DNA from: an uncultured Clostridia bacterium
GTDB lineage: Bacteria; Bacillota; Clostridia; Oscillospirales; CAG-272
Assembly: GCA_945929845.1 (NCBI GenBank)
Contig: CAMEON010000001.1
Coordinates: forward strand, 134,374-198,373
DNA: 64,000 bases
Reading direction: 5' to 3'
Part shown: positions 1,670-61,737 of the stretch, one piece after another
Layout: the number at the start of each line of letters is the position of its first letter
How positions within the stretch are numbered: position 1 is the stretch's first letter
Notes under the pieces: model-generated
The model's database searches: none
What the model was told of the DNA's origin: nothing
What the model saw: the letters and a program-made list of their open reading frames with translations, nothing else
Translations under genes and position numbers: made by a program

Positions 1670-2392
1670 ATGTTCACCGTTGGTCTTGCCGGAGTGCCTG
1701 TGGAGATTGACAACAGGTATGGCTTTGTCGAGGACTTTTGCAGTGGATACCAATGGAAAGCAAGCGCAGGGAAAGACCAAGCACCGGCTTTCCGTGTGTC
1801 GGTGACAGAGGAAAAGATCAGGGCCTATACGCAGACATGTGGCCGTCCCATGACACCGCCGGAGGCGGAGTGCGCCCTTTTGTACCGGGAGATCTGCGGC
1901 CGGATGCCGGCTTATGATACACTTCTGCTTCATGCCGCTGTGCTGTCTGTAGACGGCCGGGGATATGCCTTCTCCGCCCGGCGGGGCGTGGGCAAGACCA
2001 CCCACATCTCTCTGTGGCAGGCCGCTTACGGTAGCCGGGTGACGGTGATCAACGGAGATAAGCCCCTGGTTCGCCGAGGAGATGACGGACACTGGCGGGT
2101 GTACGGTACCCCCTGGTGCGGGAAGGAGGGGTTTGAGACCAACACCGACTGCCCCCTGACAGCCCTGTGCTTCTTAGAACAGGGACAGGAGAACCACATG
2201 ACTCCCAACCCGGCCGCAGACACCGCCGCCCGGATCCTGGAGGGCACCATCCTGCCCCCGGAGCCTGCCATGCAGGACAGAATGGCGGCCCTTGTGGGGG
2301 CTTTGACAAGGGATGTCCCGGCCTTCCTGCTGGTATGCCTGCCTCAGAAGTCTGCCGCTGAGTTGGCATATGCCACACTTTCAGGTGTGTGA
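1670..2392 (+). CDS. HPr kinase / PEPCK-superfamily P-loop protein (HprK-related kinase-like), function unknown
   Basis: LLHAAVLSVDGRGYAFSARRGVGKTTHISLW resembles the HprK C-terminal domain pattern (HA.av...g.a.lf.G.sG.GKST). It is followed by INGDKPLV...GTPWCGKEG. Assignment is by motif only. Confidence 0.65.
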   Translation: MFTVGLAGVPVEIDNRYGFVEDFCSGYQWKASAGKDQAPAFRVSVTEEKIRAYTQTCGRPMTPPEAECALLYREICGRMPAYDTLLLHAAVLSVDGRGYAFSARRGVGKTTHISLWQAAYGSRVTVINGDKPLVRRGDDGHWRVYGTPWCGKEGFETNTDCPLTALCFLEQGQENHMTPNPAADTAARILEGTILPPEPAMQDRMAALVGALTRDVPAFLLVCLPQKSAAELAYATLSGV

Positions 2393-2529: not shown

Positions 2530-2697
2530 TTAAGGAAACGCTGATTTAATGAGGTGGTACAGATTCGGTACAGATTTTTTCGTCTGCGATTGCGAAAAAC
2601 TCAAGATGTACTGGATGTACATCGAGTTTTTCGGCAAGAAGCAGGCGGGAAAAGATGTGCCGAAGATGTGCCACCGAATAAATCAGCGGTTCCTTAA
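2530..2697 (+). repeat. 168-bp palindromic (MITE/REP-like) element, copy 1 of 3
   Basis: Terminal inverted repeats TTAAGGAAACGCTGATTTA / TAAATCAGCGGTTCCTTAA. GGTACAGATT x2 and AAGATGTGCC x2, each pair with 11-bp phase. Central hairpin at 2593-2633. Near-identical to 8119-8287 and 59813-59979. Confidence 0.9.
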
Positions 2698-2749: not shown

Positions 2750-3535
2750 ATGGATTCAATGGAAATAGTAGTCAAAATCATTGTATGCCTGCTTGCCGGG
2801 GCGGGTGCCGGCTTTGGTACAGGACTGGCCGGGCTTTCGGCGGCGGCTGTGATCGCACCCATGCTGATCACTTTTCTGAATGTGAATGCCTATGAAGCCG
2901 TAGGGATTGCCCTGGCCTCGGATGTGCTGGCCTCGGCCGTGTCCGCCTATACCTACAAGAAGAACAAGAATATGGATGTGAAAAACGGCCTCATCATGCT
3001 GGTGGCGGTGCTGATATTCACCCTCGTGGGCAGTTACCTGGCCTCCCTGCTACCGCAGAGAACCATGGGCGGCTTCTCCATGTTCATGACTCTGTTCGCA
3101 GGACTGAAATTCATCGTCCGGCCTGTCATGTCAGCCAAGGAAAGCAATCAGAACAGGAGCAAACGGAAAGCCGCCGTGCAATCCATCCTGTGCGGCATGG
3201 TCATTGGCCTTGTATGCGGTTTTGTCGGTGCGGGAGGCGGTATGCTCATGCTGTTGGTTCTGGTCAGCGTGCTGGGATATGAATTGAAAACAGCGGTGGG
3301 AACCAGCGTTTTCATCATGACCTTTACCGCACTGACCGGTGCCGTATCCCATATGGCCATCGGCGGAGGCGTGACGGATATCTCTATCCTGATCATGTGT
3401 ATCGTCTTTACCCTGATCGGTGCCTTGTTGACCGCCCGGTTTGCCAATAAGGCATCGCCAAAGGTCATGAACCGCGCCCTGGGCTTTGGCCTTGTCGGTA
3501 TGAGTCTTGTCATGATCATCATAAAATATATTTGA
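2750..3535 (+). CDS. TauE/SafE family sulfite/anion exporter-like membrane protein
   Basis: Polytopic membrane protein with the Gly-rich LAGAGAGFGTGLAGLSAA motif repeated as GFVGAGGGMLM. The upstream part of the tracked ORF (2549-2700) is the repeat element, not coding sequence. Start may be 2750 or 2759. Confidence 0.8.
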   Translation: MDSMEIVVKIIVCLLAGAGAGFGTGLAGLSAAAVIAPMLITFLNVNAYEAVGIALASDVLASAVSAYTYKKNKNMDVKNGLIMLVAVLIFTLVGSYLASLLPQRTMGGFSMFMTLFAGLKFIVRPVMSAKESNQNRSKRKAAVQSILCGMVIGLVCGFVGAGGGMLMLLVLVSVLGYELKTAVGTSVFIMTFTALTGAVSHMAIGGGVTDISILIMCIVFTLIGALLTARFANKASPKVMNRALGFGLVGMSLVMIIIKYI

Positions 3536-5967: not shown

Positions 5968-7155
5968 ATGACAAAGATAGACATTTTCTCCGGCTTTCTG
6001 GGAGCCGGGAAGACAACCCTCATTAAGAAACTGATCTCCGAGGCTTATGCCGGGGAAAAGCTGGTGCTCATTGAGAATGAGTTCGGAGAGATCGGCATTG
6101 ACGGCGGCTTTCTGGCAGAAGCCGGGATCCAGATCAACGAGATGAACTCCGGGTGCATCTGCTGTTCTCTGGTCGGCGACTTCAGCCGGGCACTGGCCAA
6201 AGTGCTGACAGAATACCAGCCTGACCGGATCCTCATCGAGCCTTCCGGTGTGGGCAAGCTGTCGGATGTCATCCGGGCTGTGAAGAATGCCGCCACCGAC
6301 GGTGCCGTGCTCAACGGCTTCACCACGGTGGTTGATGCCGGGAAGTGCAAAATGTATATGAAGAACTTCGGCGAGTTCTTCAACGACCAGGTGGAAAATG
6401 CCGGCTGCATCATTGTCAGCCACACCGATGTGGCTCCGGCCAAGAAGGTGGAGGAGGCGGTTGCCCTGCTCCGGTCGCATAATGCCACCGCTGTGATCGT
6501 GTCCACCCCCTGGAACCAACTGACCGGTGCCCAACTGCTGGAGGCTATGGAGCGCCGTGACACCCTGGAGGCTGAGCTGGCTCGTCTGTCTGCTGACGCA
6601 GAAGAGGACGAGGATGACGACGAGGAACATGAGCATCACCACCATCACCATGACCATGACGATGAAGACGATGACGATGAACACGGGCATTGCTGTTGCC
6701 ACCATCATGACGGCGATGAAGACGAACATGAGCACCATCATCACCATGACGATGAGAACGATGACGATGAACACGGGCATTGCTGTTGCCACCATCATGA
6801 CGGTGACGAAGACGGGCACGAGCACCATCACCACCATCACCATCATCACGATGCAGACGAGGTGTTTGTCAGTTGCGGGGCTGAGACCACGGTTTCCTTT
6901 GATGCCCATGCGTTGGCAGAAAAGCTGGCGGCTCTCTGCGATGAAGCCAAGTACGGTGTTGTACTCCGTGCCAAGGGCATTGTGGCACCGGCAGACGGCG
7001 GCAAGTGGATACACTTTGACTATGTGCCCGGGGAGCCGGATGTCCGGACAGGGCCGTCGGCTGTCATCGGCCGGCTGTGCGTCATCGGCTCCAAGCTGAA
7101 TGTGGAGGCACTGTCTGAGCTGTTCGGCGTGTCCCTGAAGGTCTCTGAGGACTGA
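5968..7155 (+). CDS. COG0523/CobW-family G3E GTPase metallochaperone with a His/Asp/Cys-rich insert
   Basis: Walker A GFLGAGKTTL, ENEFGEIGID, the CxCC motif GCICCSL and a CobW C-terminal domain. The insert carries HGHCCCHHH twice and poly-His runs. Confidence 0.9.
   Translation: MTKIDIFSGFLGAGKTTLIKKLISEAYAGEKLVLIENEFGEIGIDGGFLAEAGIQINEMNSGCICCSLVGDFSRALAKVLTEYQPDRILIEPSGVGKLSDVIRAVKNAATDGAVLNGFTTVVDAGKCKMYMKNFGEFFNDQVENAGCIIVSHTDVAPAKKVEEAVALLRSHNATAVIVSTPWNQLTGAQLLEAMERRDTLEAELARLSADAEEDEDDDEEHEHHHHHHDHDDEDDDDEHGHCCCHHHDGDEDEHEHHHHHDDENDDDEHGHCCCHHHDGDEDGHEHHHHHHHHHDADEVFVSCGAETTVSFDAHALAEKLAALCDEAKYGVVLRAKGIVAPADGGKWIHFDYVPGEPDVRTGPSAVIGRLCVIGSKLNVEALSELFGVSLKVSED
6661..6840 (+). repeat. 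in-frame 90-nt tandem duplication (2 x 30 aa) inside the COG0523 gene
   Basis: 6661-6750 and 6751-6840 are about 90 percent identical. They encode DEDDDDEHGHCCCHHHDGDEDEHEHHHHHD and DENDDDEHGHCCCHHHDGDEDGHEHHHHHH. Confidence 0.9.
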
Positions 7156-7171: not shown

Positions 7172-8122
7172 ATGGCATACGATTTACCCGTTTACCTGTT
7201 CACCGGCTTCCTGGAGGGCGGAAAGACCCACATGATCCAGGAATCCATGGAGAGCGAGCAGTTCAACACCGGAGAGAAGACCCTGATCATCCAGTGTGAG
7301 GAAGGCATTGACGAGTTGGATATCTCCACCTTTTCCGGGAAGAATGTGTACCTGGAGACGGTGGAGAACGAGGAGGATCTGACGACAGAAAACCTCACGG
7401 CCATGGCAAAGAAGCACAAGCTGGATCGGGTCATCATTGAGTATAACGGCATGTGGATGCTCCGTACCCTGTATGAGAACCTGCCCCGCAACTGGGCCAT
7501 CTTCCAGCAGATGATGTTCGCCGATGCCAATACCTTCCTCCAGTACAACCAGAATATGCGCTCCCTCATGGTGGATAAGCTGATGAACTGCGAGATGGTG
7601 GTGCTGACCCGCACCCCGGCGGACATTGACAAGAGCGAGATACACAAGATCGTCCGTGGGTGCTCCCGCCGGGCGCAGATATCCTACGACTACCCGGACG
7701 GGCATGTGGAGTACGATGACATCGAAGATCCGTTGCCTTTTGACATGAACGCTCCCATTGTGGAGATCGCCGATGACGATTATGCCGTCTGGTATCGGGA
7801 TCTGTCCGAGGAGATGGACAACTGGGCGGACAAGGTCGTCCGTTTCAAGGGTCTGGTGGCCCGGGATGCCAAGCTGGGCAAGAATTCTATCATTGTGGGA
7901 CGCCATGTCATGACCTGCTGTGCCGCCGATATTGCATATAACGGGCTGGTATGTAACTTCCCGGCACCCTCCCCCCTGAAGACGAGGGACTGGGTGCTGG
8001 TGACAGCCAGGGTCAAGCTGGAGGCGCACAGGCTTTACGGCGGACGCCGTGGCCCGGTTCTGTACGCTTCCGCCTGCGAACCTGCCACAAAGCCCGTGGA
8101 AGAGGTGGCTACATTCTATTAA
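7172..8122 (+). CDS. degenerate COG0523-like N-domain fused to a DUF1980/TIGR03943-like C-terminal CC-motif domain
   Basis: GFLEGGKTHM and LIIQCEEGIDELD parallel the CobW motifs GFLGAGKTT and NEFGE.GID, but the CxCC motif is missing. The C-terminus (GRHVMTCCAADIAYNGL ... WVLVTARV) resembles DUF1980. RBS GGCGGAGG. Confidence 0.75.
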   Translation: MAYDLPVYLFTGFLEGGKTHMIQESMESEQFNTGEKTLIIQCEEGIDELDISTFSGKNVYLETVENEEDLTTENLTAMAKKHKLDRVIIEYNGMWMLRTLYENLPRNWAIFQQMMFADANTFLQYNQNMRSLMVDKLMNCEMVVLTRTPADIDKSEIHKIVRGCSRRAQISYDYPDGHVEYDDIEDPLPFDMNAPIVEIADDDYAVWYRDLSEEMDNWADKVVRFKGLVARDAKLGKNSIIVGRHVMTCCAADIAYNGLVCNFPAPSPLKTRDWVLVTARVKLEAHRLYGGRRGPVLYASACEPATKPVEEVATFY

Positions 8123-8287
8123 GGAAACGCTGATTTAATGAGGTGGTACAGATTCGGTACAGATTTTTTTTGCCTGCGATTGCGAAAAACTCAAGATGTA
8201 CTGGATGTACATCGAGTTTTTCGGCAAGAAGCAGGCGGGAAAAGATGTGCCGAAGATGTGCCGCCGAATAAATCAGCGGTTCCTTAA
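8119..8287 (+). repeat. palindromic element, copy 2 of 3 (169 bp)
   Basis: Identical to copy 1 apart from T-run length (8 vs 6) and about 3 substitutions. Its left TTAAGG tip contains the TAA stop (8120-8122) of the preceding CDS. Confidence 0.9.
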
Positions 8288-8327: not shown

Positions 8328-8897
8328 ATGTCGCTTTCAGAAGAGTTTCTAAATCAAATAGTTCGGGAGACTGCCACTGCCACCGAGGAATTGATCACAG
8401 CCGCCGGACTGCGTGCCGGTCAGATCCTGGTGGTCGGCTGCTCCTCGTCAGAAATGGTAGGTCAGCGCATCGGGAAAGGTTCCAGTATGGAGGCCGCCGG
8501 GGCTTTGGTGAACACGCTGATGCCCATTCTTTTGAAAAATGGAATCTTCCTGGCCGCCCAGTGCTGTGAGCACCTGAACCGTGCCCTGATCGTGGAGCGG
8601 GCTTGCGCCGAGCAGTACGGCCTTGAGGTGGTATGGGTCAAGCCGCAACCCCATGCGGGTGGCTCCTTTGCCACAACGGTTTGGGAGAGGATGCAGGAGC
8701 CAGTGGCCGTGGAATCCATCCGTGCCCATGCAGGCATGGATATCGGCGGTACGCTGATCGGTATGCACCTGCGCCGGGTAGCCGTGCCGGTTCGCCTGTC
8801 TGTCACCCGCATCGGCGAGGCCCCCGTACTCTTTGCCCGCACCCGCCCCGCCTATGTAGGCGGCCCTCGGGCTATCTATCAGGATGATCAACCGTAA
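8328..8897 (+). CDS. TIGR01440/DUF436 (UPF0340) family protein
   Basis: ATG at 8328 follows RBS AGGAAGGAGG. AGQILVVGCSSSEMVGQRIGKGSS ... FLAAQCCEHLNRALIVER is typical of the YwlG-like family. The upstream part of the tracked ORF is repeat sequence. Confidence 0.8.
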   Translation: MSLSEEFLNQIVRETATATEELITAAGLRAGQILVVGCSSSEMVGQRIGKGSSMEAAGALVNTLMPILLKNGIFLAAQCCEHLNRALIVERACAEQYGLEVVWVKPQPHAGGSFATTVWERMQEPVAVESIRAHAGMDIGGTLIGMHLRRVAVPVRLSVTRIGEAPVLFARTRPAYVGGPRAIYQDDQP

Positions 8898-8918
8898 GGA
8901 GAAGAATAACCGAAAAGA

Positions 8919-8957
8919 CTGCCGCACCATCTACCATCACCGGTGCGGCAGTTTTTT
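8919..8957. terminator. bidirectional rho-independent terminator
   Basis: CTGCCGCACC (8919-8928) pairs with GGTGCGGCAG (8942-8951) and is followed by TTTTTT. It is preceded by AAAAG and lies between convergent genes. Confidence 0.8.
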
Positions 8958-8991
8958 GGCTTTTATGTTTATGACTTCTGTTTGTGAGGAT

Positions 8992-10308
8992 TCAACCCCG
9001 GTCAAACAGGGTGCCTTGATCCAACTGCTGGGATTTCTTCCTCCAGATCCGGCCACCCACAAGACATACCAGGATACCCAGGAAGGAGATGGCAAGCCAG
9101 ATCAGGATCAGGACGCTCCAGCCCGCCCACTCTGCGGCGAGGCCGTACAGGGAGGAGAAGGCGGCAGATGCGAAGTAGGCACAGCAGTTGAGAAATCCGG
9201 TCACAGAGGAGGTAAGGCCCAGCCCCGCAAAGTGATAGGGAAGCATGGTCAGGAACATGGTGTTGGCACCCCACATGGAGGATATGCTGACAGCCAGACA
9301 GAAGGCGCACAGGAGGGCGCTCCGATCCCCGGCTATGCGGATGACCAGAATACACACTGCGGACAGGACGAACATGACCCCGCCGGTGTACAGCTCGTTA
9401 TGGATGAATTTCTTATTGATCCAGGTGGACACATAGGCACCGGAAACCGTGACAATGGGGATGATGACAGACACCAGGGCCGAGGTGGACTCATCCAGGC
9501 CGAACCGTTCGGACAGGAAGGTGGGTATCCAAGCGTTCATGGCATCCTTCAGTGCCCCGTTGCAAAGCAGGCACAGGAGCACCAATAGCAGACCGGAGGC
9601 AAGGATAACGGAGATCAGGGAGGGGCGGGTTCCCGTGGCATGCCTGTTTTCTGTGCTTGCATGGTGATCGGTGACGGCTTGCCGACTGACCCGGCACTGC
9701 GCCTCCATGCTGGCGATGTATGCACGGAGCCGGAGATTCCCGCATGTCCAAACGGCAAACGCAAGCAGGAGAAGTCCGCCGCATACGGCGAATACCGTGT
9801 GCCAGTCAGACACCCGGAGGAATAGGGCGGGGATCAGGTAGGCGCACACCGTGCCCACCGGAATGGAGGCGGCGATGTTGACACCGGCGGCATACCGCTT
9901 ACTTTCCGGTAGATGGTCGGTAAATACCCGCATCATGGGTGCCCACAGCATGGAATGGAACAGGCCGTTCAGGCTCCAGATCACCAGCATGAGCCAGGGC
10001 AGAGAACAGAAGCTCATACAGAGATTCATCAGTCCTGCCCCACACAGGCCACAGCCTATGAGATACTGGGGTCGTATGCGGGAGCCGCCGATGCCATTGA
10101 GCAGCTGACCTGACCCGTACACCACCATGTATGCGGTGGTTATGTAGCCCCCAAAGGCTTTGGTCAGCGTGCCGTCGGAGATCATAGCGGGAAGGCAGGC
10201 AGAGAAGTTCTGCCGCCCGATATAACTGAAGGCGTAAGCCAGAAAACAGAGCAGAAAAAGCTCTCCGGCGCAACGGTTGATTTTTTTCTCTGTCCAGGTG
10301 GTATTCAT
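8992..10308 (-). CDS. MFS transporter (organophosphate/sugar-phosphate antiporter-like)
   Basis: Twelve-TM-like profile with FLAYAFSYIGRQNFS and GSGQLLNGIGG motifs. ATG at 10308 was preferred; an alternative GTG lies at 10347. Confidence 0.8.
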   Translation of the reverse strand: MNTTWTEKKINRCAGELFLLCFLAYAFSYIGRQNFSACLPAMISDGTLTKAFGGYITTAYMVVYGSGQLLNGIGGSRIRPQYLIGCGLCGAGLMNLCMSFCSLPWLMLVIWSLNGLFHSMLWAPMMRVFTDHLPESKRYAAGVNIAASIPVGTVCAYLIPALFLRVSDWHTVFAVCGGLLLLAFAVWTCGNLRLRAYIASMEAQCRVSRQAVTDHHASTENRHATGTRPSLISVILASGLLLVLLCLLCNGALKDAMNAWIPTFLSERFGLDESTSALVSVIIPIVTVSGAYVSTWINKKFIHNELYTGGVMFVLSAVCILVIRIAGDRSALLCAFCLAVSISSMWGANTMFLTMLPYHFAGLGLTSSVTGFLNCCAYFASAAFSSLYGLAAEWAGWSVLILIWLAISFLGILVCLVGGRIWRKKSQQLDQGTLFDRG

Positions 10309-10434
10309 GATTCGTGTGTCCTTTTTCAATAGATTTTCGCTTTCCACTCACCCATGTCCCCGGCAGGTCATATGCTGTCCTGTCCGGCTCCGGTGGGATA
10401 GCTGGCCGGACGGGAAAGGAGTGACTGTTCAGCT

Positions 10435-11055
10435 ATGATCGCAACCAAGCCTTACATCAGGGAGCAGGCGGTGCAGTATGCCGAGGCCTGGGCTCTTGAC
10501 CGGAATCCGCTGTTCTTCAACTTCACGGGACGGGGCGGGAACTGCACCAGCTTTGCCTCTCAGGTGCTTCTTGCCGGATCCTGCACCATGAACTATACGC
10601 CGGACTTCGGATGGTACTACATCTCCCCGGAGGACAGGGCACCGGCCTGGGCCAGTGTGGAATACTTTTATGATTTTATCACCCAGCAACCGGCCTTTTA
10701 TAATGAAAACGGAGGGCTGGGTCCCTTTGGGCGGGAGGTAGATGGCAGTGAGGTATTTGAGGGGGACTTCATTCAACTGGCTGACCGCACCGGGGACTTC
10801 TACCATACCCTGGTCATCACCGGATTTGAACCTGGCGACATCCTGATCTGTGCTAACTCCGACGACGCCCTCAACCGCCGCCTGTCTACCTATAATTACG
10901 CTTCCCTTCGTTTCATCCACATAGACGGTATCGCCGTGGAGATCCCGGATGACAATTGTTTCGATGCCCTGCTGTCCGGGGAAGCCATTCTGGTCAATGA
11001 ACCGTCGTCAAACCGCAACAGCACACGGCTTGATCTGCCGCCGGAGGAACTGTAA
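10435..11055 (+). CDS. putative amidase-domain protein (Amidase_6-like)
   Basis: AVQYAEAWALDRNPLFFNF..GGNCTSFASQVLLAG ... DFIQL...GDFYHTLVIT matches the Clostridial 'putative amidase domain' pattern. RBS GGAAAGGAG. Confidence 0.7.
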   Translation: MIATKPYIREQAVQYAEAWALDRNPLFFNFTGRGGNCTSFASQVLLAGSCTMNYTPDFGWYYISPEDRAPAWASVEYFYDFITQQPAFYNENGGLGPFGREVDGSEVFEGDFIQLADRTGDFYHTLVITGFEPGDILICANSDDALNRRLSTYNYASLRFIHIDGIAVEIPDDNCFDALLSGEAILVNEPSSNRNSTRLDLPPEEL

Positions 11056-12450
11056 CTATGTCTGTGCCTTGAGCGTTTTGAGTATCTCATACACGCTCCT
11101 GACCGGTATGACCTCCACACCTTGGATGTTCATGGGTCGTTTCTCCACATTGCGGAAGGGTACGATGGCCCGGGTAAAGCCAAGGCGTACCGCTTCGTGA
11201 ACCCGCTGTTCCAGATTGGACACACTGCGCACTTCACCTGCCAATCCCAACTCGCCGATGACCATCAGCTCATCCGGCACCACCCGATCTGTCAGGGAGG
11301 AGATCAGGGAGGTGGCCATAGCCAGATCCGCCGCCGGCTCTCCGATGGAAAGACCACCGATAACATTCAGGTACACATCGTTCTGATAGAATTTCAGTCC
11401 CAGCCGTTTTTCCAGCACTGCCAGGATGAGGTAGAGCCGGTTGTAATCCACGCCGTTGGCCGTGCGCCGGGGGGAAGGGAAGACCGTGGGCGTGACCAGT
11501 GCCTGGATCTCGGCAATCAGGGGTCGTGTGCCCTCCATGGTACACAGGGCACAGTTGCCGGATACCTGCTTGGGCCGCCCGGAAAGCAGCATCTCCGACG
11601 GATTGGCCACCTCGTCCAGTCCCTTGTCCGTCATCTCAAATACCCCGATCTCATTGGTAGAGCCATACCGATTCTTGACGGCACGGATGATCCGGTAGGC
11701 CTGCTGTCGCTCCCCTTCAAAGTACAGCACCGCATCCACCATGTGCTCCAGCACCTTGGGGCCGGCAATGCCGCCCTCCTTATTCACATGACCCACCAGC
11801 AACATAGAAATGCCCTCTGCCTTGGCCTTGTTGATGAAGGTCAGGGCACATTCCCGCACCTGGGTGATGGAGCCAGGCGCAGAATTGATCCGGTCGGAGT
11901 ATATGGTCTGAATGGAATCCAGGATCATCACTTCCGGCCGGAGGGCGTCCGCCTCCGCCAGGATATGCTCCAGATTGGTTTCGGTCAGAATGAACAGATG
12001 CTCCCCGGACACGCCCAGGCGGCGGGCACGGAGCTTGAGCTGTCCCCCCGACTCCTCGCCGGACACATACAACACCTTCCGGCTCTGACCCAGACAGTCG
12101 GAGATCTGCATGAGCAGGGTGGACTTTCCGATGCCCGGTTCTCCGGCCAGGAGTACCACAGAACCCAGCACCAGACCGCCGCCAAGCACACGGTCCAGCT
12201 CCCCAAGGCCGGTCTCAGAGCGCATATACGCTGGCTCGTTCAGTCCGGTGAAGGGGACAGCGTGGGATTCCCCGGCGGTTGCAGATGGGGGACGGCGGGA
12301 TGCAGGCGAACGGCCGGTTTCCTCCGGCTCAGGTGAGACTACCTCTTCCGCCAGGGTGTTCCAACGGCCGCAATGGGGGCATTTCCCCAGCCATTTTGGG
12401 GAACGGGCACCGCATTCGGTGCAGACAAATATGGTCTTCGGCGTTTTCAT
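11056..12450 (-). CDS. radA: DNA repair protein RadA/Sms
   Basis: N-terminal zinc ribbon CTECGARSPKWLGKCPHCGRWNT, RecA-like GEPGIGKSTL, the KNRYGSTNE motif and a Lon-like C-terminal domain. Confidence 0.95.
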   Translation of the reverse strand: MKTPKTIFVCTECGARSPKWLGKCPHCGRWNTLAEEVVSPEPEETGRSPASRRPPSATAGESHAVPFTGLNEPAYMRSETGLGELDRVLGGGLVLGSVVLLAGEPGIGKSTLLMQISDCLGQSRKVLYVSGEESGGQLKLRARRLGVSGEHLFILTETNLEHILAEADALRPEVMILDSIQTIYSDRINSAPGSITQVRECALTFINKAKAEGISMLLVGHVNKEGGIAGPKVLEHMVDAVLYFEGERQQAYRIIRAVKNRYGSTNEIGVFEMTDKGLDEVANPSEMLLSGRPKQVSGNCALCTMEGTRPLIAEIQALVTPTVFPSPRRTANGVDYNRLYLILAVLEKRLGLKFYQNDVYLNVIGGLSIGEPAADLAMATSLISSLTDRVVPDELMVIGELGLAGEVRSVSNLEQRVHEAVRLGFTRAIVPFRNVEKRPMNIQGVEVIPVRSVYEILKTLKAQT

Positions 12451-34534: not shown

Positions 34535-34649
34535 GTTTTGAAAGTCTTTGAAAGGGGTCCGGGGAAACTTTCTTCAGAAAGTTTCCCCGGCGTTCCTCCC
34601 GTCCTTCAAAAAAAGGGGGAGAACTGCCCCCTTGGGTGGTCTTTCAAAA
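34535..34649 (+). repeat. intergenic repeat family B, copy B
   Basis: GTTTTGAAAGTC..GGGGTCCGGGG, with a perfect hairpin GGGGAAACTTTC-ttca-GAAAGTTTCCCC (34561-34588), then GGCGTTCC. TTTTGAAAG (34536-34544) is complementary to CTTTCAAAA (34641-34649). Confidence 0.65.
34606..34633 (-). terminator. rho-independent terminator of the Coat_F gene
   Basis: The minus strand reads AAGGGGG-cagttct-CCCCCTT followed by TTTTTTT. Confidence 0.8.
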
Positions 34650-59603: not shown

Positions 59604-59743
59604 GGTTACATCCTCCTTGTTGGTTACATACAGACACAGATAGACTGAGCCCTATATTTAACCTCATTATATACTTTCTCTGTGAACTCAATATGAATTA
59701 TCTTTCAAAATGTGTGAATTTATCCGGTTTTTGATAAGCAAAG

Positions 59744-59778
59744 AAAAAAAGAGCCGAACCGTTTGGATACGGTCTGGC
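59744..59778 (-). terminator. rho-independent terminator downstream of the SBP gene and palindromic element
   Basis: The minus strand reads GCCAGACCGT-atccaa-ACGGTTCGGC (8 of 10 bp paired), followed by TCTTTTTTT. Confidence 0.65.
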
Positions 59779-59812
59779 CGGAAAAATGTGTGTCGAAACG
59801 GATTCAGAAATC

Positions 59813-59979
59813 TTAGGAAACGCTGATTTAATGAGGTGGTACAGATTCGGTACAGATTTTTTTGCCTGCGATTGCGAAAAACTCAAGATGTACTGGATGT
59901 ACATCGAGTTTTTCGGCAAGAAGCAGGCGGGAAAAGATGTGCCGAAGATGTGCCGCCGAATAAATCAGCGGTTCCCTTA
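59813..59979 (+). repeat. palindromic element, copy 3 of 3 (167 bp, degraded tips)
   Basis: The interior matches copies 1 and 2 (7-T run). The left tip is TTAGGAAACG (one A lost) and the right tip is GGTTCCCTTAC. The terminal TTA (59977-59979) is the TAA stop of the minus-strand SBP gene. Confidence 0.9.
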
Positions 59980-61470
59980 CTTAAAGCCCTTCAGAATGTT
60001 GTTCATTCTCTTGTCGAAGTTCTTGCTGATGCTGGTGTATTTGGAGGTGAACTGATTGGCTCCCGTTATGCTATCGCTGAAAATGCCGCTGAAGCCAAGG
60101 GTTTCAAAGTACATAGCCATATCATAGATACGGTGTCGGAAAATAATATCCAGCATTTCGGAGGACTCCGCATCCCGTACATTCCGGGTTGTCAACATGA
60201 TCTCATAGTAGGCCGGTCTGACCAACTTTTGGGACAGCACAGCGTACAACTCCAGAACATCCGCAAAGGCATCCATGTCTGCATCCTTGCTCGCCACCGA
60301 GGCGGGGATGGACAGGGTGGACCCTATGCTGTGGCTCCATGTGGTGTAGTGTTCCTGGGAGACACTATACTTGGGGATGGGGATAACGCCGTACTCGCTG
60401 TCCATGTTCTTATTCAAGCTGCGTAGGTAACTGGCGGCCTCCACATAATACAGGGAACGACCTTCCACAAAAATTCCACAGGATTTGGACTCTGAGCCTG
60501 GGGCGGCGATGTACGAGGAATTGTTTTCATGAACAATCTGGCGGGCAAGGTTCAGCACATTCAGCGCAATATCCATATCGGAAGCGGTCAGTGCCAATTC
60601 GGGAGCCTCCATACTGCGGCTGTTGCGGACATACTGCAACCCGGCGCCGTAAAAGAAAGTATTTCCAATGGAGCTGGGTGTGGAGAAGCCGTATGTGTCG
60701 TGCTCGTCCCATACACCGTCACCGTTGTCATTAGACAGGCCACTGATGATGGAGTTGAACTTATCCAGCGTCCATTCGTTGTTTTTCACGGTTTCGTAGG
60801 GGTTTTCCACCCGGTACTCTGACTGGAGCTTCTTATTGAACATCATGACAAAGGTCACATCATCGTCCACGATGTTAAAAGAACCGTTCATAAAGAACAC
60901 ACGACCGTACAGCGCAAAGTCCAGCGTGCCCTCGTCCCACCATTCCTGATCGTAGTCGATATCCAGGTCAAGGTAGTTGTACAGATAGTTGGATGTGGCG
61001 GCATTCGCAGTGCCGGAGGTGGTCTGGGTGACCAGTTGGAAGTCACCGGTCGTTGCCTGAACCTCGCTCAGGAGCTTATTCGCTATACTTGCATTGCTCA
61101 CGGGGATGAGGACAAAATGAAGTTTTCCGTACTCCTCAAAGAGGGCGTTCCGCTCATACACTGCATCGTTGATGACGCCACTGCTGGTGTTGTCACCGGC
61201 GGCGGCTTGGGCTTCCACCTCCTCGGTGTAACCGGAGATGTCGTTGATGTACAGAATACCGAAATCCCGGCCACCCCAGTCCACGGTGGCACGCACGGCA
61301 TCCAAAGCGTTCTGCACGGGGTCGGTCTCAGCCTGGTTCCCGGCGGCGGTCTGACGGGCACTCTCATCGCCCGAGGCATTCCCTTCCTGATTGCCGCAGG
61401 CAACAAAGGAAGTCAGAATCATCAGTGCAGTCAGGAGCAGGCATATCCGCTGAGCAGTTTTGTTTTTCAT
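59977..61470 (-). CDS. ABC transporter extracellular solute-binding lipoprotein (sugar-type)
   Basis: MKNKTAQRICLLLTALMILTSFVACG lipobox. About 500-aa SBP-like sequence. ATG at 61470 follows RBS GGAGG. Confidence 0.8.
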   Translation of the reverse strand: MKNKTAQRICLLLTALMILTSFVACGNQEGNASGDESARQTAAGNQAETDPVQNALDAVRATVDWGGRDFGILYINDISGYTEEVEAQAAAGDNTSSGVINDAVYERNALFEEYGKLHFVLIPVSNASIANKLLSEVQATTGDFQLVTQTTSGTANAATSNYLYNYLDLDIDYDQEWWDEGTLDFALYGRVFFMNGSFNIVDDDVTFVMMFNKKLQSEYRVENPYETVKNNEWTLDKFNSIISGLSNDNGDGVWDEHDTYGFSTPSSIGNTFFYGAGLQYVRNSRSMEAPELALTASDMDIALNVLNLARQIVHENNSSYIAAPGSESKSCGIFVEGRSLYYVEAASYLRSLNKNMDSEYGVIPIPKYSVSQEHYTTWSHSIGSTLSIPASVASKDADMDAFADVLELYAVLSQKLVRPAYYEIMLTTRNVRDAESSEMLDIIFRHRIYDMAMYFETLGFSGIFSDSITGANQFTSKYTSISKNFDKRMNNILKGFK

Positions 61471-61603
61471 GTGATTTACCTCCATGTGAAAATACTATTT
61501 CAAGAAACAGGAAACGCCCCTTCCGATACATGAAAAAGGTTGAATTCACCATTCAGAAAGGTCGAATATGGGCACAATGCACAAAATTTTTGAGATTTTC
61601 TTT

Positions 61604-61632
61604 ATTATATCACAAAAAGTGCGGTGTGTCAA
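61604..61632 (-). promoter_or_regulatory. sigma-A promoter, exact TTGACA-17-TATAAT, for the SBP gene
   Basis: The minus strand reads TTGACA (61632-61627), a 17-nt spacer, then TATAAT (61609-61604). This implies a leader of about 125 nt. Confidence 0.75.
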
Positions 61633-61737
61633 CCGGTATTTGAAAATTTCTCCCTGCTTCTCTGCTTCTCTGTTTCTCTATTATCACATCACCTCAATCG
61701 GAACTGAAAATATGCCTGGTAAAATTCAAAAAGCCTA

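Follow-up and report, generated by a model that had tools for sequence, protein, structure and literature searches.

The classic bacterial miniature inverted-repeat transposable elements (MITEs) are among the described systems closest to the repeat reported here. Correia/NEMIS of Neisseria is a MITE of about 105-155 bp with terminal inverted repeats (TIRs) of 24-26 bp and a TA duplication, some copies carrying an IHF site and promoters, and RUP of Streptococcus pneumoniae is a Firmicute MITE of about 107 bp. ERIC (also IRU or RU-1, 127 bp) and YPAL (RU-2, 168 bp, Yersinia) are multi-copy intergenic repeats of enterobacteria, which are full-length imperfect palindromes folding as long RNA stem-loops, are found in empty and filled sites among close relatives, and form fortuitous open reading frames (ORFs) fused to their flanks (PMC2229807; PMC2759123). 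The ends of Correia/NEMIS, ERIC and RUP carry TA, while YPAL makes duplications of variable length, 3-26 bp, beside dyad symmetries (PMC2229807). Here, a 64,000-nucleotide chromosomal stretch of an uncultured Clostridia bacterium (contig CAMEON010000001.1, positions 134,374 to 198,373; hereafter the window) was found to hold three copies of a repeat that is very probably a MITE, a 160-bp non-coding, non-autonomous DNA transposon presumably moved in trans at YTAR-like sites by a DDE transposase. It shares the size class of 127-168 bp and all of the above features of YPAL and ERIC, and it shares TIRs and a target duplication with Correia/NEMIS. Unlike YPAL and ERIC, it resides in a different host phylum, has an unrelated sequence (no BLAST, Rfam or profile match), and makes a fixed 4-bp duplication at YTAR; its sequence is also unrelated to Correia, and no promoter-like site of the sigma-70 type was found in it. 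What is new relative to the classic bacterial MITEs is therefore the sequence, the host among uncultured gut Clostridia and the 4-bp YTAR duplication, and nothing is conceptually new for MITEs.

The three copies lie on the + strand at 2530-2697 (copy 1), 8119-8287 (copy 2) and 59813-59979 (copy 3), coordinates that include bases of the duplicated flanks, and are about 98-99% identical to each other when aligned with 30-bp flanks. The identity has sharp edges at TTAAGG...CCTTAA, and the flanking DNA of the three copies is unrelated. An earlier sequence-only reading of the window had proposed a search for empty sites in relatives, and such sites were found for copies 1 and 2, each with a single TTAA. 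For copy 2, the comparison was made among metagenome contigs encoding a 316-amino-acid CobW/DUF1980 protein identical to that of the window (7172-8122). The site is filled in L001, L003, L004 and L005, and it is empty in L002 and L007, where a 40-bp spacer with one TTAA leads to the DUF436 gene (TATTAAGGCC, also given as ...TATTAAGGCCGCC... and, in longer context, as ...ACATTCTATTAAGGCCGCCC...). For copy 1, the site is empty in L154, a contig with a 240-amino-acid protein identical to that of window positions 1670-2392 (...TTTTTTAACATTGCC...; ...CGTTTTTTAACATTGCC...), and the window has TTAA-element-TTAA at this place. As the empty sites hold one TTAA, the outer TTAA represents the 4 bp of target that were duplicated, and the element itself spans GGAAACGCTGATTTA...TAAATCAGCGGTTCC. 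A filled copy-2 site with a wholly different right flank was also observed in L005 (1615-3503), where a translation-GTPase-like ORF of 608 amino acids lies on the minus strand. This arrangement may stem from MITE copies that recombined or from a contig that is chimeric at the repeat.

Identical 4-bp flanks were present in eight of the 11 complete copies at independent loci, namely TTAA in five and CTTA, TTAG and CTAA in one each. The left and right tetranucleotides co-vary, so they represent a duplication and not a part of the element. Other flanks seen at the DNA level include CTAG (left side only), and the exceptions to YTAR were CTTA and TTTA. Targets were also read from the first two codons downstream of the element in the tails of short predicted proteins that run out of it (described below); 72 of the 89 inferred targets were YnAR and thus YTAR-compatible (TnAA 46, CnAA 13, TnAG 9, CnAG 4). 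According to these results, the element is mobile, makes a 4-bp duplication, prefers YTAR-like targets, has no gene of its own and is polymorphic among conspecific strains. A length below about 300 bp, TIRs, a duplication of fixed length, dispersed copies and presence/absence polymorphism between close relatives, all of which characterize MITEs, were seen together.

Four insertions are located exactly on the stop codon of a gene: the CobW-like gene at copy 2, the lipoprotein gene at copy 3, a gene of 661 amino acids in L130 and the DUF2752 gene at L148:807. The stop codon survives such an insertion because YTAR embeds TAA or TAG and the duplication regenerates it. This stop-codon-sparing insertion may help the element to pile up in short intergenic spacers, and landing on stop codons with their regeneration would be the way in which a YTAR-targeting element packs into tight bacterial intergenic DNA.

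The element proper is 160 bp in copies 1 and 3 and 161 bp in copy 2, with a G+C content of 46% against 57% in the host. Most of the anatomy drawn in the sequence-only reading stood, including three near-identical copies in the same orientation, T-runs of 6, 8 and 7 in copies 1, 2 and 3, the left-arm pair of 10-mers GGTACAGATT and the right-arm pair AAGATGTGCC with an 11-bp period, and a central hairpin. The 19-bp TIRs in that reading are a real inverted repeat, but their outer 4 bp (TTAA) belong to the target-site duplication; the true TIRs are 15 bp (GGAAACGCTGATTTA / TAAATCAGCGGTTCC), 14 of 15 positions being complementary, with both ends found in all three copies. The tips of copy 3 had been described as eroded, but its ends are intact and are flanked by a different 4-bp duplication, CTTA/CTTA. 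From the TIRs, an imperfect palindrome extends inward across the full length of the element. A 44-nt core occurs exactly three times in the window, compared with 0 expected from 100 shuffles; the terminal 17-mer GGAAMCGCTGATTTAWT occurs six times, two per copy, and the double 10-mer GGTACAGATTCGGTACAGATT three times. No further or degenerate copy was detected in the window by an nhmmer search with the profile hidden Markov model of the family. The features are as follows:

2530-2533, unstranded: left target-site duplication TTAA of copy 1 (single TTAA in the L154 empty site; table of flanks)
2534-2693, + strand: probable MITE, copy 1, 160 bp (TIRs 2534-2548 and 2679-2693; double 10-mer 2556-2576; core hairpin 2592-2635)
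2694-2697, unstranded: right target-site duplication TTAA of copy 1
8119-8122, unstranded: left target-site duplication TTAA of copy 2; the CobW/DUF1980 gene (7172-8122) ends with its TAA as stop codon
8123-8283, + strand: probable MITE, copy 2, 161 bp with the 8-T run, in the 40 bp that separate the CobW-like gene from the DUF436 gene (8328-8897)
8123-8137, + strand: left TIR of copy 2, GGAAACGCTGATTTA
8145-8165, + strand: left-arm subterminal direct repeat of copy 2, GGTACAGATT twice with an 11-bp period
8183-8223, unstranded: central hairpin of copy 2, CGAAAAACTC-aa-GATGTAC-tggat-GTACATC-GAGTTTTTCG, with an A5 tract upstream and a T5 tract downstream
8242-8262, + strand: right-arm subterminal direct repeat of copy 2, AAGATGTGCC twice with an 11-bp period
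8269-8283, + strand: right TIR of copy 2, TAAATCAGCGGTTCC
8284-8287, unstranded: right target-site duplication TTAA of copy 2
59812-59815, unstranded: left target-site duplication CTTA of copy 3
59816-59975, + strand: probable MITE, copy 3, 160 bp (TIRs 59816-59830 and 59961-59975)
59976-59979, unstranded: right target-site duplication CTTA of copy 3; the lipoprotein gene (59977-61485, minus strand) has its TAA stop at 59977-59979

Copy 1 sits between the terminator of an ScmC-like gene (1670-2392) and a TauE gene (2750-3535).

Outside the window, the element was seen in independent assemblies from ENA, NCBI and Logan. The translation of the frame that is open across the element was used as bait against a collection of 5.8 billion proteins and retrieved 119 clusters of short "proteins", all of 94 amino acids or fewer. 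The C-terminal tails of these clusters are translated right-hand flanks, and the 89 different tails correspond to at least 89 independent insertion sites. The genome scan of GTDB used one exact 26-mer and the metagenome scan one exact 24-mer; since exact matching misses the GGTGCATATT subfamily, the resulting counts of at least one contig of a metagenome-assembled genome (MAG) in GTDB ("uncultured Clostridium sp.", a 91% copy with TTAG/TTAG flanks) and at least seven human-gut metagenome contigs are underestimates. Further complete copies, 86-96% identical, were found in the DNA behind several of the protein clusters, in GCA_003555845.1, GCA_964463245.1 and ENA assemblies, with duplications of CTAA/CTAA and then TTAA/TTAA three times. 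Locus L148, from the organism of the window, has three copies in 10.7 kb. Short-read contigs repeatedly end inside the element, as expected of a multi-copy repeat. The LigA of the host is 99% identical to one cluster and about 80% identical to proteins of "Clostridia bacterium" and "Ruminococcaceae bacterium" MAGs; the host species is present in ERZ28573803, ERZ27233312 and GCA_019972995.1. BLAST searches of PLSDB plasmids and INPHARED phages with the whole element and its left 51 bp gave no match or only chance 19-mers, and in viral contigs two specific patterns gave 0 matches while a 15-mer gave only chance matches among the matches listed. No description of the element was found in the searchable literature.

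Recent activity in the chromosome of the host, an uncultured human-gut Clostridia member, is well supported, and the suggestion of a recently mobile MITE in the sequence-only reading is borne out by the empty and filled sites, the target-site duplications and the insertion sites elsewhere. The repeat represents a recently active and apparently uncatalogued MITE family, which resides in Ruminococcaceae-like MAGs of uncultured Clostridia from the human gut. Short-read assemblies are fragmented by this family, many contigs ending within it, and it creates spurious "hypothetical proteins" in public protein sets (at least 119 clusters). Its insertion polymorphism at the strain level, which occurs inside operons, makes it a useful strain marker, and the element should be masked in annotation.

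Several rearranged copies were also observed. In L136 (921-1038) and L134 (1-70), back-to-back copies share one TTAA, a 67-bp copy with an internal deletion directly preceding a full one. Derivatives of 89-148 bp in L131, L138 and L153, which have also lost internal sequence, show decay by deletion between internal direct repeats. The many-membered tail cluster P0119/L157 represents a copy nested in another palindromic repeat; in L157 (1940-2240), this copy has CTAG/CTAT flanks, the arms of the surrounding repeat are GTAGGGCGGGGGCTTGCTCCCGCC and GGCGGGAGCAAGCCCCCGCCCTAC, and a related GTAGGGGCGGATTCCATATCCGCCC hairpin follows. These surrounding repeats look like GTAG-tagged REP-like elements.

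As for the mechanism, a transposase encoded elsewhere in the genome would bind both ends of the element, integration would take place at a (C/T)TA(A/G)-like tetranucleotide, mostly TTAA, and the 4-bp target would be duplicated in the process. Members of the IS5 group of insertion sequences (ISs) make 4-bp duplications at YTAR targets and have G(G/A) termini. Based on the 4-bp duplication, the YTAR target and the GG termini of the element, we lean towards a DDE transposase of the IS5 group (IS5 family), or one closely allied to it, as the mobiliser. The duplications of IS5 carry a strong 5'-YTAR-3' motif, and the element resembles E. coli IS5 in its 4-bp duplication, (C/T)TA(A/G) target (PMC5009759), GGAA termini and bias towards non-coding DNA. 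The ends of E. coli IS5 (GGAAGGTGCGAATAAG, GGAAGG...) and those of the element (GGAAACGCTGATTTAA, GGAAAC...) both begin with GGAA. Unlike the IS5 group, the element is only 160 bp long, has no transposase gene and is hosted by gut Clostridia, its cognate full-length IS was not found, and, in contrast to known IS5 ends, it is wholly palindromic with phased subterminal 10-mers. A similar logic was applied to RUP, whose mobiliser IS630-Spn1 was inferred from the similarity of TIRs and target to those of the IS (PMC2229807); the partner IS of RUP is known, whereas that of the present element was not found, and RUP has a TA target of the IS630 type in place of a 4-bp target of the YTAR type.

A number of observations weigh against this explanation of the element and its mobiliser. 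Matching flanks are lacking in three of the 11 complete copies (L132, L148:807 and L131), and about 19% of the inferred targets, including the CTTA of copy 3, are not YTAR. Only eight of 16 TIR positions match E. coli IS5, the comparison being limited to that element. The window, about 290 kb of related loci and the collections of viruses, plasmids and phages yielded no autonomous element whose ends match; the mobiliser family is consequently read from the target and duplication signature by itself. IS701, ISH3 and some IS1182 or IS427-group elements also duplicate about 4 bp, so the IS5 group is not the sole candidate, and we know of no IS5-type ends with phased subterminal repeats.

The statement in the sequence-only reading that the window lacks a transposase holds for every ORF scanned, none of which has a transposase domain. 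A scan of all fetched loci for the TIR with up to three mismatches gave a single lone chance match (L138:15571). Several candidates for the partner were rejected. The truncated copy P0114/L148:4637 was considered as the end of an IS, but ordinary DNA follows it; the L134 spacer is AT-rich and non-coding; and the 502-amino-acid gene beside copy 3 encodes a lipoprotein. Fragments of IS66-family TnpC/TnpB were identified in the gut contig L137 (1-800), 2.2 kb from a MITE copy; they are not the partner, as IS66 makes 8-bp duplications. Compared with L139-L141, L142 has an insertion of about 1.6 kb (320-1970) between the asparaginase and ArsB genes, which encodes a 298-amino-acid protein with no Pfam match on record. 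This extra ORF was likewise rejected as the partner, no MITE TIRs flanking it.

The plus strand of the element is predicted to fold as one long hairpin with 68 pairs (-99.7 kcal/mol, z = -15), in which the right-arm direct repeat pairs with the left-arm repeat via G:U pairs. Between the arms, 64 positions are Watson-Crick complementary, eight differences are of the G:U type on the plus strand and none on the minus strand, and nine are transversion mismatches; as the G:U-type differences are compatible only with the plus strand, its fold is 26 kcal/mol better than that of the minus strand (-73.7 kcal/mol). In addition, the central stem, preceded by A5 and followed by T5, has a terminator-like score on both strands, and all copies are intergenic. 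These properties, together with comparable roles documented for Correia/NEMIS, ERIC and YPAL (PMC2229807), are the grounds for an alternative in which the element is kept mainly as RNA, such as a small structured RNA, a transcription terminator or a hairpin for RNase III or mRNA stability, and was spread by selection and not by transposition. Correia/NEMIS can serve as the model for such a role in a secondary sense, because its transcribed hairpins may be processed by RNase III and can affect neighbouring genes (PMC2229807).

However, this alternative is unlikely, and the structured RNA or REP-like mRNA element suggested in the sequence-only reading did not find support. The Rfam scan proposed there (Rfam 15, whole window) gave 0 matches at the gathering threshold, and only chance-level matches at an E-value of 10 or below (mir-785, 15 bits; sR4, 12 bits). 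Double changes were found in only two of the 68 pairs, a number reached in 156 of 500 shuffles, although the copies are very similar, which limits this test. The covariation energy term of alifold was unfavourable (+0.85), and one-sided changes were split between about 12 pair-keeping and eight pair-breaking columns. The orientation relative to genes is mixed (sense in copies 1 and 2 and L152; antisense in copy 3, L130, L138, L148 and L153), and conspecific strains live without copies. An RNA role is also compatible with the MITE reading and could only be secondary and exapted; speculatively, if transcribed, the long hairpin and the A5-stem-T5 module at its centre could serve in termination or RNA stability.

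Equally doubtful, in our view, is a further pair of options, in which the element is an exapted portable bidirectional terminator or RNA-stability cassette that lands on stop codons, or is moved by an undescribed bacterial transposase that prefers TTAA and reads the phased repeats, and not by one of the classical IS5 group. The grounds for the cassette would be the strand bias of the full-length hairpin (eight G:U-type arm differences against zero) combined with the A5-stem-T5 centre, which resembles a bidirectional terminator. Concerning the phased 10-mers, the first left-arm unit is replaced by GGTGCATATT or GGTACATATT in relatives and subfamilies, and L153 and at least seven protein clusters have lost one right-arm unit. 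Because of this loss and these substitutions in many family members, the putative protein-binding role of the 10-mers is weakened. In several copies the TIRs stay symmetrical through a recurrent paired change (TTTAAT/ATAAAT to TTGAAT/ATCAAT), which agrees with recognition of both ends by one protein just as well as with a hairpin.

A single-strand element of the IS200/IS605 type, associated with a palindrome and a Y1 transposase that recognises the hairpin on one strand and inserts it 3' of a fixed TTAA, is very improbable. The strand asymmetry of the arm differences and of the folds would agree with it, as would a long hairpin nearly always preceded by TTAA, and strand-asymmetric, hairpin-forming intergenic repeats are also known among IS200/IS605-derived and REP/BIME (RAYT-associated) elements. 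However, neither the IS200/IS605 family with its derivatives nor REP/BIME has TIRs or target duplications, whereas the present element has genuine TIRs, and its flanks co-vary on both sides (CTAA/CTAA, TTAG/TTAG, CTTA/CTTA), indicating a true target duplication that IS200/IS605 does not make. Four of the eight G:U differences are within the duplicated 10-mers and hence not independent events, and none of the loci showed a TnpA or TnpB gene. The TIRs and co-varying tetranucleotides place the element outside the IS200/IS605 type, and its 160 bp, TIRs, duplication and lack of a GTAG or CGTC tag place it outside REP/BIME, since REPs are 20-40 bp with such tags (PMC3733652).

The two weakest explanations are hardly credible. 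An inert local duplication (the outcome that the sequence-only reading had named as its refutation) or an assembly artefact, for which only the three copies visible in the window would speak, is contradicted by the unrelated surroundings of the copies, which lie 5.6 and 51.7 kb from each other and whose identity ends sharply, by the empty alleles and by the same element at no fewer than 89 other sites in independent assemblies. A small protein gene of about 50 amino acids (MRWYRFGTDFF...INQRFL), of which the repeats would be paralogues, would account for the frame that is open through the whole element in copies 1 and 3 and annotated by gene callers in the 119 clusters, but was rejected as the variable sites are even over codon positions 1, 2 and 3 (11, 12 and 10), non-synonymous changes outnumber synonymous ones (27 against 7), variants that shift the frame through the T-run or 11-bp indels occur often, the ORF lacks its own stop and continues into whichever flank it meets, and no convincing ribosome-binding site precedes the ATG.

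The window itself is ordinary chromosome, with pgi, cobW, pheST, tyrS, lon, addAB, ligA and similar genes, and no tRNA was detected in it by ARAGORN. Copy 3 is within a strain-variable segment of 2007 bp (59722-61728), which also holds the lipoprotein gene of 502 amino acids, a protein with no Pfam or NCBIfam family. In L150, whose LigA is 99% identical, this segment is replaced by 109 unrelated bp. The segment was considered as a composite bounded by MITEs and was rejected, as there is no TIR at its boundaries. In L152, a MITE copy was found between tandem paralogues (8428-9975 and 10268-11815) of the lipoprotein family that borders copy 3 (28% identity, E = 2e-34). The lipoprotein neighbourhood shared by copy 3 and the L152 copy may be a coincidence or a preferred neighbourhood.

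A second intergenic repeat of about 65 bp was also identified in the window, at 876-921 and 34553-34598 (extending over about 858-925 and 34540-34600), with 91% identity over 46 nt. It contains the palindrome GGGGAAACTTTCTTCAGAAAGTTTCCCC, its first copy is located just downstream of pgi, and it possibly represents a further family of small repeats or terminators.

Finally, the CobW gene at 5968-7155 contains imperfect tandem repeats of 90 bp (HHHHDHDDEDDDDEHGHCCCHHHDGDED twice) at 6595-6866, which encode a low-complexity insert rich in His, Asp, Glu and Cys, and the protein varies in length between strains (392 against 395 amino acids). The insert resembles a metal-binding tract within a CobW-type GTPase.

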